Positions 182 to 4,166 of a stretch of DNA of 4,372 bases are shown one piece after another; positions within the stretch are counted from its first letter, which is position 1, and each line of letters starts with the position of its first letter. Made by a program: the position numbers and the translations under genes. This stretch comes from a virus (Duplodnaviria; Heunggongvirae; Uroviricota; Caudoviricetes): positions 1 through 4,372 of IMG/VR virus record IMGVR_UViG_2778261571_000009, one strand, 5' to 3'. The notes beneath the pieces are model-generated. The model searched no databases. It was not told where the DNA came from and saw nothing but the letters and a program-made list of their open reading frames with translations.

Positions 182-787
182 ATGAGCAAAGAATTTTACG
201 CAAGACTGGCAGCTATTCAGGAGAATCTGAACGCGCCAAAAAATCAGTACAACTCATTCGGTAAATATAAATACAGAAGCTGCGAAGATATTCTTGAAGG
301 CGTTAAGCCGTTACTGAATGGTCTGTTTTTATCAATCAGCGATGAAGTTGTGTTGATTGGTGATCGGTATTACGTGAAAGCCACGGCAACTATTACCGAT
401 GGCGAAAACAGTCATACGGCAACCGCTCTTGCACGAGAGGAAGAAAGCAAGAAAGGAATGGATTCTGCACAAGTTACGGGAGCTACAAGCTCTTATGCAC
501 GCAAGTATTGCCTCAATGGTTTGTTCGGCATTGATGATGCGAAAGATGCAGATACAGACGAGCATAAACATCAGCAGAACGCAGCAGCAAAGCAATCAAA
601 ACCATCACCTACACCTGAACAGGTTCTAAAAGCATTCACTGACGCAGCATTGCAGAAAAACACCGTAGAAGAGCTTAAACAGGCGTTCGCCAAAGCGTGG
701 AAGATGCTCGAAGGCACACCGGAGCAGCACAAAGCGCAGGACGTTTACAACATCAGACGAGACGAATTAGAAGGAGCGGCTGCTTAA
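182..787 (+). CDS. erf: Erf-family single-strand annealing protein (essential recombination function), 201 aa
   Basis: ORF 152-787 on the track; I prefer the ATG at 182 (MSKEFYARLAAIQENLNAPKNQYNSFGKYKYRSCEDILEGVKPLL...), which matches my recollection of the P22 Erf N-terminus. The TTG at 152 would only add a 10-aa extension. Stop TAA 785-787. Confidence 0.85.
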   Translation: MSKEFYARLAAIQENLNAPKNQYNSFGKYKYRSCEDILEGVKPLLNGLFLSISDEVVLIGDRYYVKATATITDGENSHTATALAREEESKKGMDSAQVTGATSSYARKYCLNGLFGIDDAKDADTDEHKHQQNAAAKQSKPSPTPEQVLKAFTDAALQKNTVEELKQAFAKAWKMLEGTPEQHKAQDVYNIRRDELEGAAA

Positions 788-1170
788 TGGCACATTCGAT
801 TACTGTAAGACTAAACAAGCCCGCAAGAGAGTTTCAGGCCGGGGAAAATATCGGATTCAACATCCGTGCTGGAGTTCAGTATTACGATCGCCAGACAAAA
901 AAGAAAGAATGGACAAACTACAGCGCCGTTGTATTTGCCAAGCCGGGAGCGCAAGCGGATTACTACCGTAGTGTTCTTGTTGAAGGTGGCATTGTGGAAA
1001 TTACCGGAGAAAACATCAGGGTTGATGTTTATCAGGGGCAAAATGGTCAATCAATCACTCTTGAATTACTGAATGCAAAGATTGGATTTGCAGCTTCAGG
1101 AAATGGCCCGCAGCAGCAAAGTAGTAACCAGCAGAACACTCCTGTATACGACGATTCCATCCCATTCTGA
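787..1170 (+). CDS. ssb: short phage SSB-like single-stranded DNA-binding protein (127 aa) with acidic C-terminal tail ...YDDSIPF
   Basis: ATG at 787-789 overlaps the erf stop (TAATG), with AGGAG at 772-776. The translation ends in DDSIPF, close to the canonical bacterial SSB tail (DDDIPF) that recruits host replication and repair proteins. The central EW...VVFAK...VEGG.VEI.G pattern fits an OB fold. The track start at 697 is an in-frame extension through the erf 3' end and is unlikely. Confidence 0.75.
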   Translation: MAHSITVRLNKPAREFQAGENIGFNIRAGVQYYDRQTKKKEWTNYSAVVFAKPGAQADYYRSVLVEGGIVEITGENIRVDVYQGQNGQSITLELLNAKIGFAASGNGPQQQSSNQQNTPVYDDSIPF

Positions 1171-1500: not shown

Positions 1501-1668
1501 ATGAGAGGACTTGCATACAATCCCGGCATTCTTCCGGCAGAAATGATTATTCGCCAACGCGTAAAGCCAATGCCATCGAGAGAGGAATTGCTTAAGAGAA
1601 AGAGTTTCGGTTCTGTTAATGACAACAAATATCTGAATGCGATGTTGCGCAAAGGAGGCAACCGGTGA
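1501..1668 (+). CDS. hypothetical small protein (55 aa)
   Basis: GAGGAA at 1489-1494, 6 nt before ATG 1501 ([15 protein letters not shown]...). The track lists a longer 1348-1668 ORF, but its 5' part overlaps the previous gene in another frame and lacks an RBS. Stop TGA 1666-1668. Confidence 0.55.
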
Positions 1669-1748
1669 CTGGACATGCAGCGATCCTCGACATGTGCTGT
1701 GGCAGCCGCATGTTCTGGTTAGATAAGAATGACGAACGGGCGAGATAA
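1665..1748 (+). pseudogene. 27-codon remnant resembling the N-terminus of a class I SAM-dependent (DNA?) methyltransferase; probably a truncated gene
   Basis: Strong AGGAGG at 1653-1658, 6 nt before GTG 1665 (overlapping the upstream stop as GTGA). Translation [27 protein letters not shown] then TAA at 1746-1748. 'ILDMCCGS' resembles SAM-binding motif I (hh-D-x-x-x-G-x-G region) at the start of methyltransferases. The ORF ends after 27 codons just before the next gene. Confidence 0.35.
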
Positions 1749-1798: not shown

Positions 1799-2497
1799 AT
1801 GAAAAATATCCTACTGGCATCATTGTTAGTGGCATCGCCGGGTGCATTTGCAGCCAGCTTTGACTGCCAAAAGGCTTCGACAGCAATCGAACATAAAATC
1901 TGCGATAACGAACGTCTGTCAAAATTAGACGAACAGCTTAGCTCTGCCTATTCTAGTGCCCTCAAAGAAAACCCAGAGAACGCAGACACCATAAAAATGG
2001 TTCAACGTCAGTGGGTAAATATGCGTGGAAAACTCACTGATAATAAGGCTCTGGAGCTGGCTTATCTTATCCAAATTAATGGCCTCAAAGGTTTGGGGAG
2101 TTCAGTCAGCGTAACAGCGGCCAATGAGATACCCACGTCGACGCAGAAACATTCTGAAGAGCAGGAAGAAACAAGTAAGGCAGAAGTTAAGTCGGTCAAG
2201 AACGGCAATAAGCTAACCTTAGAGTCATTCCGAGCTAAATATGTAGAAGTAGATGGTGAGTATTACAGCACGACATCCATTCCTAGAGGCAGTTCGTTCT
2301 TGTTCACTTGCGCCAGTCGTATTGCTGATGACCAAGTGAATGTTTGGAAGAAACATGCAGCCAAAGAGGGCAAAATCGACCTATTCTTTGAGGTTGAGAA
2401 TCACTTACACACTGCTATGTTGAACGCCAATTTCCAGAAGTTGAATTCAGACCCTGCCAAAAGAGGTATTTGTAATCTGATTAACGCAGTGCCGTAA
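1799..2497 (+). CDS. secreted (Sec signal peptide) protein with N-terminal DUF1311/LprI-like domain, 232 aa; candidate moron
   Basis: GGAG at 1790-1793, 5 nt before ATG 1799. N-terminus MKNILLASLLVASPGAFA/AS has a basic n-region, hydrophobic core and AxA cleavage motif. The mature N-terminus SFDCQKASTAIEHKICDNERLSKLDEQLSSAY...QRQWVNMR matches the DUF1311 (LprI/YecT-like) pattern sFDC.kA.t..E..IC.d..L..LD..L...Y...QR.W as I remember it. Followed by a hairpin terminator. The track start at 1772 lacks an RBS. Confidence 0.75.
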   Translation: MKNILLASLLVASPGAFAASFDCQKASTAIEHKICDNERLSKLDEQLSSAYSSALKENPENADTIKMVQRQWVNMRGKLTDNKALELAYLIQINGLKGLGSSVSVTAANEIPTSTQKHSEEQEETSKAEVKSVKNGNKLTLESFRAKYVEVDGEYYSTTSIPRGSSFLFTCASRIADDQVNVWKKHAAKEGKIDLFFEVENHLHTAMLNANFQKLNSDPAKRGICNLINAVP

Positions 2498-2507
2498 GTA
2501 AATTTAG

Positions 2508-2537
2508 GGCCACAGTTGTGGCCTTAAATATTTTTTC
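2508..2537 (+). terminator. putative intrinsic terminator after the DUF1311-like gene
   Basis: GGCCAC (2508-2513) / GTGGCC (2518-2523) stem with loop AGTT, followed by TTAAATATTTTTTC containing a T6 run (2531-2536). The T-tract is 7 nt from the stem, so efficiency is uncertain. Confidence 0.5.
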
Positions 2538-2555
2538 AGCCTTTTCTTATTTGTA

Positions 2556-2580
2556 ATAAGCAGTACTTAGTAGTGCTTAT
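2556..2580. promoter_or_regulatory. imperfect 25-bp palindrome in an AT-rich intergenic region upstream of the TGT-like gene; possible operator or regulatory hairpin
   Basis: ATAAGCAGTACTTAGTAGTGCTTAT has perfect 7-bp outer arms ATAAGCA/TGCTTAT and a partly symmetric core. It lies in the roughly 200-bp visibly AT-rich gap 2498-2703. No convincing sigma70 -35/-10 pair could be assigned by eye. Confidence 0.25.
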
Positions 2581-2703
2581 AAAACAGAATAAAAAACATA
2601 TGACTTTGGCGATTACCCAGTAAAGATATTCGAAATAAATGTAAATATCGGCAATGAATAACAATCCTCGCACTCGCGGGGATTTCTTTTATATGGGGAT
2701 AAT

Positions 2704-3504
2704 ATGACCATCCACTTTCACGGCAGCCCAATATGGGGGGATGAGCATGCCCCTACAGATATGCTGATTAAAGCCCTTTACCGTGATGGTGGGGCTTTTG
2801 TTTCATTTGCCAGACCAGAGCAGATGAAAAAGATTGCCATGTTCCCTTGTGATATACGCCTTGATAACGGCGCTTTTAGCGACTGGATGAAAGCATTAAA
2901 GAAAGGCACTCCGGTAGACTGGAGTAAGAGGCGAGCAAAATTCTACGACTTTGTTGGGAAGTGGTTCAGCAGAATTGAATGGTTTCTTATACCTGACGTT
3001 ATCGAAGGGACAGAGGCAGAAAACGACGAGCAGATTGAGTTGGTTCCTGATTGGCTAAAATCAAAAGCGGTTCCGGTCTGGCATACCGACGAATCAATTG
3101 AACGTCTTTTACGCCTTTCTGGCAAATTTGAATGGGTGGCGATTGGATGCTGCGGCCCACACAGGCACATACGCTCTAAATGGTGGGAACAGAGAATGGA
3201 TGAAGTTTTCACTGAGCTTTATATCAATCGTAATTTGAAAGTGAAAATTCATGGTCTTCGAATGCTCGACGTGAGAGTTCTTGGTATGTATCCGTTCGCC
3301 AGTGCGGATTCTACTAATGTTGCTGTTAACGTACCGAAGACAGAGAAGCGATTTCCTGAGATTACTGACAAACTGGCACGTACAGCTGTACTTCGCGCTG
3401 CTATTGAAAAGGTGCACCCGCCATCGATATCAGCATGGGTAGACAGAAAGATGAGAGAGCCGGCGCAAGCCGGTTTTTTATTTGAATTCACCGACGCCGC
3501 TTAA
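2704..3504 (+). CDS. TGT-like (tRNA-guanine transglycosylase fold) protein, 266 aa, lacking the C-terminal zinc subdomain; candidate DpdA-like DNA 7-deazaguanine transglycosylase
   Basis: GGGG at 2695-2698 before ATG 2704. Colinear motif matches to TGT as I remember it: FVSFARPEQ (TGT FHLWLRPGQ), IRLDNGAFS (ILTDSGGFQ), WFLIPDVIEG (IVMIFDEC), FEWVAIGCCG (FDGYAVGGL), MYPFASADSTNV (DMFDCVMPTR). There is no CxCxxC...H cluster after the last motif. Confidence is for the gene being real; the functional call is inference (about 0.5). Confidence 0.7.
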   Translation: MTIHFHGSPIWGDEHAPTDMLIKALYRDGGAFVSFARPEQMKKIAMFPCDIRLDNGAFSDWMKALKKGTPVDWSKRRAKFYDFVGKWFSRIEWFLIPDVIEGTEAENDEQIELVPDWLKSKAVPVWHTDESIERLLRLSGKFEWVAIGCCGPHRHIRSKWWEQRMDEVFTELYINRNLKVKIHGLRMLDVRVLGMYPFASADSTNVAVNVPKTEKRFPEITDKLARTAVLRAAIEKVHPPSISAWVDRKMREPAQAGFLFEFTDAA

Positions 3505-3522
3505 TGCGGATTTCTTTTATCT

Positions 3523-3549
3523 GAACTCGCTACGGCGAGTTTTGTTTTA
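3523..3549 (+). terminator. putative intrinsic terminator after the TGT-like gene
   Basis: Stem ACTCGC (3525-3530) / GCGAGT (3535-3540), loop TACG, extendable by A3524-T3541, followed by TTTGTTTTA. A weaker CCGC/GCGG hairpin spans the stop codon at 3497-3509. Confidence 0.55.
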
Positions 3550-3561
3550 TGGAGATGATAA

Positions 3562-3729
3562 ATGCACTTCCGAGTAACAGGTGAATGGAATGGAGAACCA
3601 TTCAACAGAGTTATCGAAGCAGAGAACATCAACGACTGCTATGACCACTGGATGCTGTGGGCGCAGATGGCACATGCAGACGTAACCAATATTCGAATTG
3701 AAGAACTGAAAGAACACCAAGCCGCCTGA
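3562..3729 (+). CDS. hypothetical small protein (55 aa)
   Basis: GGAG at 3551-3554, 7 nt before ATG 3562. MHFRVTGEWNGEPFNRVIEAENINDCYDHWMLWAQMAHADVTNIRIEELKEHQAA, stop TGA 3727-3729 inside the loop of the following terminator. Not on the ORF track because of size. No family recognised. Confidence 0.5.
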   Translation: MHFRVTGEWNGEPFNRVIEAENINDCYDHWMLWAQMAHADVTNIRIEELKEHQAA

Positions 3730-3742
3730 TGGCGGTTTTTTT
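3719..3742 (+). terminator. intrinsic (rho-independent) terminator
   Basis: AAGCCGCC (3719-3726) pairs with GGCGGTTT (3731-3738): five G-C pairs, one G-U and two A-U. Loop TGAT, then a T-run through 3742 (GGCGGTTTTTTT). Confidence 0.7.
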
Positions 3743-3756
3743 ATTGGAGACAAGAA

Positions 3757-4101
3757 ATGTCAGATTTGGCTATGAAGGTTTTGAAATGGCAATCGACTGG
3801 CGATGTCGGCATCAGTAGCGCAACTCTTGCCTCAATCGCATGTGGACTGAAAAAGAATATCTATGGTCATCACTTCGGCGCTCCACATGACGTAGCCGAT
3901 TTCCGGCGATGCGTTGCACTTGTTGAGCAGATTCCAGAAATCAGAGATTCATTCGACAAGGTTGCAAAGCGCGTTCCGGCATTCAAAGGAATCCTCAACG
4001 AATGGGATTCCCTCGTTGCTCTGTTGAAGTCTGAAATGAAGACGTACGGGAACAAAGCACCAGAGACTTACAGAAGAATCAGCGAGCTACGCAAGGACTA
4101 A
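3757..4101 (+). CDS. hypothetical protein (114 aa)
   Basis: GGAGA at 3746-3750, 6 nt before ATG 3757. ORF on track. Contains a His-rich segment GHHFGAPHD. No family recognised. Stop TAA 4099-4101. Confidence 0.65.
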   Translation: MSDLAMKVLKWQSTGDVGISSATLASIACGLKKNIYGHHFGAPHDVADFRRCVALVEQIPEIRDSFDKVAKRVPAFKGILNEWDSLVALLKSEMKTYGNKAPETYRRISELRKD

Positions 4102-4140
4102 CCCGCCTCACACTCGATGAGGCCTGTTCATATCTGATAG

Positions 4141-4166
4141 AGCCGCAGTATGGCGGTTTATTTTTG
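4141..4166 (+). terminator. possible weak intrinsic terminator upstream of the AlpA/Xis-like gene
   Basis: GCCGC (4142-4146) / GCGGT (4153-4157) stem with one G-U, loop AGTATG, followed by TTTATTTTTG. A separate 6-bp hairpin GCCTCA/TGAGGC at 4105-4123 has no U-tract. Confidence 0.35.

Follow-up and report, generated by a model that had tools for sequence, protein, structure and literature searches.

[quoted passage not shown] We put the probability of this explanation as a whole, module identity and tip-mediated docking together, at about 60%. The Erf-SSB pair is real but has already been described, and it is an ordinary cassette of HK97/HK022-type E. coli prophages.

Table 1. Features located in the window, with the matches or readings that identify them
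Feature	Positions	Strand	Evidence
Small ORF at arf position, 56 aa	1–171	+	phrog_1723, E = 9e-36; HK97 gp42 / Sf6 gene 29-like family
erf, Erf-family single-strand annealing protein, 201 aa	182–787 (ATG 182, TAA 785–787)	+	PF04404, E = 2e-44; phrog_155, E = 2e-57
Erf C-terminal domain, predicted three-helix bundle	617–784	+	AF2, pLDDT 88
Shine-Dalgarno-like AAGGAG within the 3'-terminal part of erf, 10 nt before the ssb ATG	771–776	+	read from sequence
TAATG, erf stop (785–787) and ssb start (787–789), one shared base	785–789	+	
ssb, phage SSB of the HK97 gp40 / 'SSB-1b' family, 127 aa	787–1170 (ATG 787–789, TGA 1168–1170)	+	phrog_44, E = 3e-27
SSB tip YDDSIPF, aa 121–127	1147–1167		
abc2, anti-RecBCD protein 2, 98 aa	1194–1490	+	PF11043, E = 3e-61; phrog_656, E = 6e-56
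DUF2737 gene	1501–1668	+	
LprI-like secreted protein (accessory gene)	1799–2497	+	
DpdA/TGT-like protein (accessory gene)	2704–3504	+	
AlpA/Xis-like gene	4181 to window end	+	

The module and its counterpart in P22

All recognisable genes of the window lie on the same strand. By megablast the window matched, in mosaic blocks of 95–98% identity, the early-left operon of lambdoid phages (HK97, HK022, HK106 and Stx-type phages), and E. coli prophages were also found by sequence search to match it. The annotations of HK97 and HK106 give the same order of genes (N, cIII, kil, small ORFs, erf, gp40, abc2, gp38 ... xis, int), and the arf position is filled in both of these phages as well. Nearly all close relatives carry abc2, as third member of the module, 3' of ssb. 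Within positions 1–1690 nothing resembling a promoter or a terminator was found; the first terminator-like hairpin, at 1698, is weak (5-bp stem), and an Rfam search of the whole window returned no RNA family. Further small ORFs are present among the accessory genes of the window. An ORF of 27 codons after the DUF2737 gene was considered as a counterpart of HK97 gp37 and rejected, having no similarity to it.

The first-pass annotation had called the product of the upstream gene Erf, and the searches bear this out. The protein scored 151.6 bits over aa 5–143 against the PF04404 curated cut-off of 25, is 75% identical to P22 Erf over 205 columns (BLASTP, E = 9e-111), and is 100% identical to the Erf of HK542. 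These matches showed the gene product, as judged from homology, to be a bona fide Erf-family annealase. An ERF domain (aa 5–143) leads through a low-complexity linker into a C-terminal domain (~aa 146–201), which was predicted with confidence by AF2 in a 62-aa construct, with helices at residues 6–19, 23–37 and 42–61. The domain is recognised by the motif ...L..FT..A....LK.AF...W..L.....KA..VY.IR..EL, and domains bearing this motif end the Erf proteins of Yersinia, Vibrio, Serratia, Rahnella and Raoultella. The same type of domain also ends Sak4-like AAA_24 ATPases of a Leminorella prophage and of Erwinia phage EhrS_59, the Leminorella gene overlapping an SSB-1b gene by 1 nt. Related C-terminal domains on P22 Erf and on the EhrS_59 Sak4-like protein have no recognised phage SSB gene adjoining, which is consistent with use of the host SSB tail. 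When the 62-aa domain alone was the query, fragments and only 18 representatives were returned, too few for a census of domain architectures. Homology of the domain to the C-terminal domain (CTD) of Redβ or to λ Orf was considered as well and was not supported (hhalign probability 0.1% against λ Bet; best Foldseek E against the PDB, 1.9).

The first-pass annotation had also set this module apart from the arrangement of P22, a statement that stands only in part. abc1 and the C-terminal domain of Erf are indeed replaced, but the locus is not far from that of P22, with abc2 directly downstream of ssb. The two Erf proteins are ~92% identical over their first 120 residues, the abc2 genes are homologous, and the junction at the end of erf is the identical GCTTAATG. 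In contrast, the C-terminal ~45 residues of Erf are only ~30% identical, ssb stands in place of abc1 (Abc1 is 94 aa long), and the ORF at the arf position is unrelated to P22 Arf; descent from an Arf relative was considered for this ORF and rejected, as BLASTP found no similarity between the two. Identity of the erf DNA to that of P22 is ~76–87% up to nt ~590, 62–71% at nt 572–661 and 44–51% from nt ~650, and this drop indicates a mosaic joint at ~nt 640–660, where the C-terminal domain of Erf begins. By these alignments, the cassette exchanged relative to P22 comprises the C-terminal domain of Erf and the gene that follows erf, Abc2 being retained. In ES18 a C-terminal domain of the P22 type is combined with something other than abc1 downstream. 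The idea that P22 Abc1 is a degenerate SSB was rejected (hhalign probability 0.3%).

The 127-residue protein and its C-terminal tip

The protein encoded downstream of erf is labelled 'hypothetical protein' in RefSeq. It is 94.5% identical to HK97 gp40 and 95.3% identical to the HK022 homologue. Standard searches do not place it in a curated SSB family (PF00436 or TIGR00621): no Pfam entry matched at E ≤ 0.1, the NCBIfam model TIGR00621, whose cut-off is 53.95, gave 13.5 bits, and phmmer and profile searches of the PDB returned E ≥ 0.45. The relationship to SSB was recovered only by PHROGs, hhalign and fold search. An AF2 model built with 41 homologues has a mean pLDDT of 83.7, with means of 80–96 for 10-residue blocks over residues 1–100; it shows OB-type strands, a helix (residues 55–63) between strands, and disorder from about residue 107, pLDDT being below 50 at residues 107–121 and 125–127. 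The protein can accordingly be divided into an OB-fold core (~aa 1–105), a Q/N-rich disordered linker (~aa 106–120) and the tip. When the model was compared with the PDB by Foldseek, the 50 matches listed were all bacterial SSB, PriB or mtSSB (best E = 4.5e-5, probability 1.00); among these matches, ranks 1–21 were SSB chains only, and the first PriB chain appeared at rank 22. Similarly, the family profile was aligned with E. coli SSB by hhalign at a probability of 88% (E = 3e-6), and in this alignment Y32/Y33, W42, F50 and Y82 fall on the stacking residues W40, W54, F60 and W88 of the E. coli protein. The family alignment shows no variation at Y32, Y33 or F50, and at least 90% of its sequences keep W42.

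Judged by the predicted structure, the protein fits best as an OB-fold SSB of bacterial type that has diverged very far; we infer its ssDNA binding and oligomeric state. The first-pass annotation had proposed an OB-fold SSB with a host-like tip, naming a profile search as the check, and the proposal withstood it: although the scores for Pfam and TIGR00621 stayed below threshold, PHROG 44, AF2, Foldseek and hhalign agree, and the conservation of the tip described below points the same way. The modelled likeness to E. coli SSB comprises the OB fold, the aromatic residues at the four stacking positions, and a disordered linker ending in an acidic I-P-F tip. E. coli SSB chains are only 16–18% identical to the window protein in the Foldseek alignments, however, and the host protein is longer (178 against 127 aa), mainly on account of its linker (>50 residues in the host, ~15 here).

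That the phage protein is much shorter than the host SSB and still keeps an acidic YDDSIPF end, as first noted, was confirmed by direct reading of the sequence. It ends ...NTPVYDDSIPF, and E. coli SSB, whose sequence agrees with PDB entries 1EQQ and 4MZ9 over residues 1–178, ends ...PMDFDDDIPF; compared with the host tip, that of the window has Ser for the third Asp and Tyr for Phe. The terminal P-F is a key determinant in SSB-Ct biology. A census of tips was made on 108 full-length cluster representatives of the SSB-1b family, and 86 of them were found to end in PF (IPF in 69, PPF in 12, VPF in 3, APF in 2). Most of these have two or three acidic residues, with an aromatic residue, just before the end, giving a consensus of [FYW]-D-D-x-[IP]-P-F that is conserved beyond a hypervariable linker; sequence varies freely along the Q/N-rich linker, and the region after the OB fold ranges from 14 to 118 aa in length. 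Retention of the tip beyond so variable a linker is a signature of selection on the tip. Relatives from Yersinia and Leminorella end in PMDFDDDIPF, precisely the last ten residues of the host SSB, and prophage SSBs of Serratia and Rahnella end in W-D-D/E-x-P-P-F. In one metagenomic subgroup of the family the acidic IPF tip is wholly absent. The deposited sequence of HK97 gp40 contains one extra A, by which its end becomes ...DDSNPILI, so that the tip is hidden there; it is intact in the window.

Roles for the tip and for the gene overlap

The explanation we favour runs as follows. The module would be transcribed within the early-left (pL) operon; Abc2 would turn RecBCD into a resection machine, and the phage SSB would coat the ssDNA delivered by the Abc2-modified enzyme. 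The tip of the SSB would then dock Erf onto the coated ssDNA and so stimulate annealing, the docking site on Erf probably being the three-helix C-terminal domain. As the tip carries the host motif, host SSB could serve the same Erf as well, and proteins that bind host SSB may be engaged by the phage SSB, either incidentally or as a second function. Several observations count against this explanation: the scores of the curated SSB models below threshold, the C-terminal domains of P22 Erf and of the EhrS_59 protein that have no recognised phage SSB gene adjoining, the combination seen in ES18, and the metagenomic subgroup of the family without the acidic IPF tip.

Recruitment of Erf by the SSB tail is suggested as the most likely role by analogy with two pairs, Sak4/SSB of HK620 and Redβ/SSB of λ. 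The HK620 module consists of hkaM, sak4 (hkaL), ssb (hkaK) and abc2 (Hutinet et al., 2018, PMC5928155), and the last six residues of its SSB, NDYPPF, are needed for loading of Sak4 on SSB-covered ssDNA and for stimulation of recombineering (PMC5928155). The window shares with it the four-slot architecture, with an SSB in the 'abc1' slot between annealase and abc2, and a host-like tip (x-D-x-P-P-F in HK620). The annealases differ, that of HK620 being the RecA-like Sak4 and that of the window the Rad52-like Erf; the SSBs differ too, since the HK620 protein, 'SSB-2', is reported as non-homologous to bacterial SSB (PMC12315714), whereas the window protein is modelled as a diverged bacterial-type OB fold. 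In λ, the SSB-Ct peptide of E. coli is bound by the three-helix CTD of Redβ, an interaction abolished by the substitution F177A (Caldwell et al., 2019, PMC6393309). In both Redβ and Erf, a Rad52-like annealing domain at the N-terminus is joined through a low-complexity linker to a small C-terminal domain of three helices (predicted in Erf), and in λ as in the window the end of the annealase gene runs into the start of the partner gene; the C-terminal domains, however, have no detectable sequence similarity or specific structural similarity. Consistently, SSAP/SSB compatibility was reported to be determined by the 7 C-terminal residues of the SSB (bioRxiv 2020.04.14.041095). The HK620, Redβ-CTD and compatibility results make tip-mediated hand-off to Erf the most economical reading, and on the same analogies we hypothesise an Erf-tail contact.

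A bolder version is conceivable, in which the three-helix C-terminal domain (~55 residues), carried by both Rad52-like Erf and RecA-like Sak4 upstream of SSB-1b and exchanged relative to P22 along with the downstream gene, would be a portable SSB-Ct docking module co-evolved with the phage tip. In that case a self-contained, host-portable recombination kit would be formed by Erf, SSB-1b and Abc2, and the tail of the SSB would also compete for the host SSB interactome. We regard this version as possible but, on balance, doubtful. When tail variants (IPF or PPF) were compared with the annealase C-terminal domain for co-variation, a PPF tail went with a divergent domain in Serratia and Rahnella loci, and in Yersinia loci the divergent domain stood beside the canonical DFDDDIPF; the independent pairs are too few, and the comparison is confounded by phylogeny.

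Two other roles for the SSB have to be weighed against recruitment of Erf. The DDSIPF tip might serve mainly to draw interaction partners (ExoI, RecQ, RecO, PriA, χ and others) away from host SSB, either bringing them to recombination intermediates of the phage or keeping them off host or phage DNA. The closeness of YDDSIPF to the host's FDDDIPF speaks for such a takeover, as do the Yersinia and Leminorella ends identical to that of the host, the terminal P-F as the best-conserved part of the tip, and the adjoining abc2, which itself hijacks a host enzyme. On the other hand, tips that depart from the host motif, WDDEPPF in Serratia and Rahnella and NDYPPF in HK620, are nonetheless kept, the HK620 tail acts on the phage's own annealase (PMC5928155), and ssb is tightly linked to the annealase gene, not to replication or nuclease-inhibitor genes. 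We therefore consider it unlikely that takeover is the main role of the tip; the phage SSB may, as a second function, titrate or recruit partners of the host SSB. Far less probable still is a role other than that of an SSB, with the OB-fold protein acting in the primosome in the manner of PriB, as an accessory to replication, or as a decoy or trigger for host defence systems, and the adjacency to erf being incidental. Such a role might be read from the PriB chains among the Foldseek matches, from the absence of any curated SSB model above threshold, and from the report that phage SSBs trigger Retron-Eco8 (bioRxiv 2025.11.11.687766). Against it stand the SSB chains that fill the 21 top ranks of the fold search, the aromatics at the four E. 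coli stacking positions, and the adjacency to an annealase that is conserved across genera. The SSB-1b family, moreover, has a disordered linker and an SSB-Ct tip, and PriB, to our knowledge, has neither.

The remaining alternative concerns the overlap of the two genes rather than the tip. The first-pass annotation had read the erf stop and the ssb start as overlapping in TAATG, which direct reading confirmed, and had taken the overlap to imply coupled translation and a fixed stoichiometry, which our results do not support. A dependence of SSB synthesis on translation of erf, with the ratio of the proteins set in this way, is favoured by conservation of the junction: the overlap of 1 nt is kept in 86 related loci, including prophages of Serratia, Rahnella, Yersinia, Leminorella and Raoultella. 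It persists across Enterobacterales where Erf is down to 29% identity or undetected (tblastn, E ≤ 1e-5) and the flanking codons differ; in Serratia and Rahnella, whose Erf proteins are 66% and 29% identical, respectively, the ATG lies one codon later and the overlap is still 1 nt. It is found, too, where the upstream gene encodes a Sak4-like annealase. However, ssb has a good Shine-Dalgarno sequence of its own, AAGGAG, and AAGGAG or AAGGGG occupies that site in all close relatives, so that the downstream gene does not lack an independent ribosome-binding site as the second gene of a coupled pair should. Furthermore, GCTTAATG also joins P22 erf to abc1, whose product is unrelated to SSB, λ bet and exo overlap by 4 nt, and 27 of the 61 same-strand junctions of HK106 overlap (6 by 1 nt, 9 by 4 nt and 12 otherwise). 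Two Vibrio-phage relatives keep the order erf-ssb with gaps of 11 and 47 nt. An overlap permits re-initiation and does not alone set a stoichiometry. We conclude that the overlap is neither specific to the Erf-SSB pair nor required, and is the usual compact junction of such operons; that it allows some ribosome re-initiation is plausible, but obligatory coupling with a fixed protein ratio is quite improbable.

Occurrence and significance

The module and its SSB have precedents. In a study of 325 lambdoid phages (Genome Research 2025, PMC12315714), HK97 gp40 was named 'SSB-1b' from its AlphaFold 3 fold, and a class of modules comprising an anti-RecBCD protein, an SSB and an annealase (SAP) without a nuclease was defined, with 27 phages and HK75 as its prototype. 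The window has the same gene, in the same order erf-gp40-abc2 and in the same pL-operon context, with no difference in kind; we found no mention of the C-terminal tip in the main text of that paper. Recent recombineering papers also report that phage SSBs are often paired with annealases (PMC12054835). The order annealase-then-ssb holds in phages of Escherichia, Salmonella, Citrobacter-like hosts, Serratia, Rahnella, Yersinia and Vibrio, and also where a Sak4-like AAA_24 ATPase takes the place of Erf. The SSB-1b gene is present in 579 of 5,426 complete E. coli genomes (~11%) and, at ≥90% identity, in 49 phage records. Given the SSB-1b naming, the earlier reports of annealase/SSB pairing and this wide occurrence, the finding is already known.

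What is added here is small: the conserved SSB-Ct-like tip of the SSB-1b family, the C-terminal domain that its annealases have in common, and the extra A in the HK97 reference. Correct annotation of the SSB would be useful because the gene, present in ~11% of complete E. coli genomes, is still a 'hypothetical protein' in RefSeq. Erf and its cognate SSB are a plausible recombineering pair of modest practical value; matching an SSAP with an SSB tail has been published to improve portability (bioRxiv 2020.04.14.041095, PMC12054835). For the biology of these phages the locus opens no new question; it is a further example of an established theme, in which phage annealases travel with an SSB whose tip mediates the hand-off.

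Erf C-terminal domain on other annealases

The Sak4-like AAA_24 ATPases of a Leminorella prophage and Erwinia phage vB_EhrS_59 (see table) both carry at their C-terminus a domain of ~55 aa with ~50% identity to the Erf C-terminal domain. In the Leminorella prophage, the Sak4-like gene overlaps the SSB-1b gene by one base, the same overlap as between erf and SSB-1b. Given its presence on these ATPases, the domain moves between annealases of unrelated fold. The match of mEp234 (H220/H221) to the window covered only the Erf C-terminal domain plus the first ~146 nt of ssb and diverged beyond, which suggests that the C-terminal half of the mEp234 SSB is recombinant or different. In ES18 (H182) the match to the P22 probe was limited to its first 149 nt, which correspond to the P22-type Erf C-terminal domain and leave out abc1.

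Features of the window and of two compared loci
Feature	Locus	Coordinates	Strand	Remark
27-codon ORF	window	1665-1748	+	GTG start overlapping DUF2737 stop (GTGA)
LprI-like protein (lysozyme-inhibitor family)	window	1799-2497	+	PF07007, E=8e-5
DpdA / queuine tRNA-ribosyltransferase-like protein, 266 aa	window	2704-3504	+	phrog_887, E=1e-102
Sak4-like AAA_24 ATPase, 287 aa	L094, Leminorella prophage	696-1559
Sak4-like AAA_24 ATPase, gp42, 287 aa	L097, Erwinia phage vB_EhrS_59	1805-2668

Accessory genes downstream of DUF2737

A strong terminator-like hairpin (2502-2529) comes after the LprI-like gene, whose product has an N-terminus resembling a signal peptide; the gene is missing at the corresponding position in HK97 and HK106. 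It has the look of a moron insertion, with DUF2737 on one side and the DpdA-like gene on the other, and the 27-codon ORF may be the leftover of a longer gene cut by this insertion; its product showed no similarity to HK97 gp37, the occupant of the slot in HK97. The DpdA-like gene, also found in HK106, is solitary within the accessory region, and genes for 7-deazaguanine synthesis could not be recognised anywhere in the window; Pfam and NCBIfam gave no match for its product. Terminator-like hairpins were in excess over the whole window (13 observed, 3.7 expected from shuffles), the majority lying on the + strand within 2500-4160, between small accessory genes. This excess is consistent with a series of independently acquired, N-antiterminated morons.

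C-terminal tips of SSB-1b proteins

Among homologues of window 787-1167, the tip variants named were P0090, P0092-P0095, P0097, P0098, P0101, P0102 and P0107. A metagenomic SSB-1b subgroup (150-170 aa) lacks the acidic IPF tip and ends in ...NFQQPR or ...FPQHQG; a few further homologues end in DDDWV or DDGWV. Partners of variants without the IPF tip, if any, must be recognised in another mode.

Deposited HK97 gene 40 (L001, AF069529, 3370-3390; GATTCCAATCCC) contains a single additional A relative to window 1147-1170 (GATTCCATCCCA), and its product is therefore 129 aa long, ending in ...YDDSNPILI rather than ...YDDSIPF. The additional A reflects either an error in the 1990s sequencing or a genuine tail-destroying mutation of the reference phage; whichever its origin, the SSB-Ct motif is concealed from users of the HK97 record.
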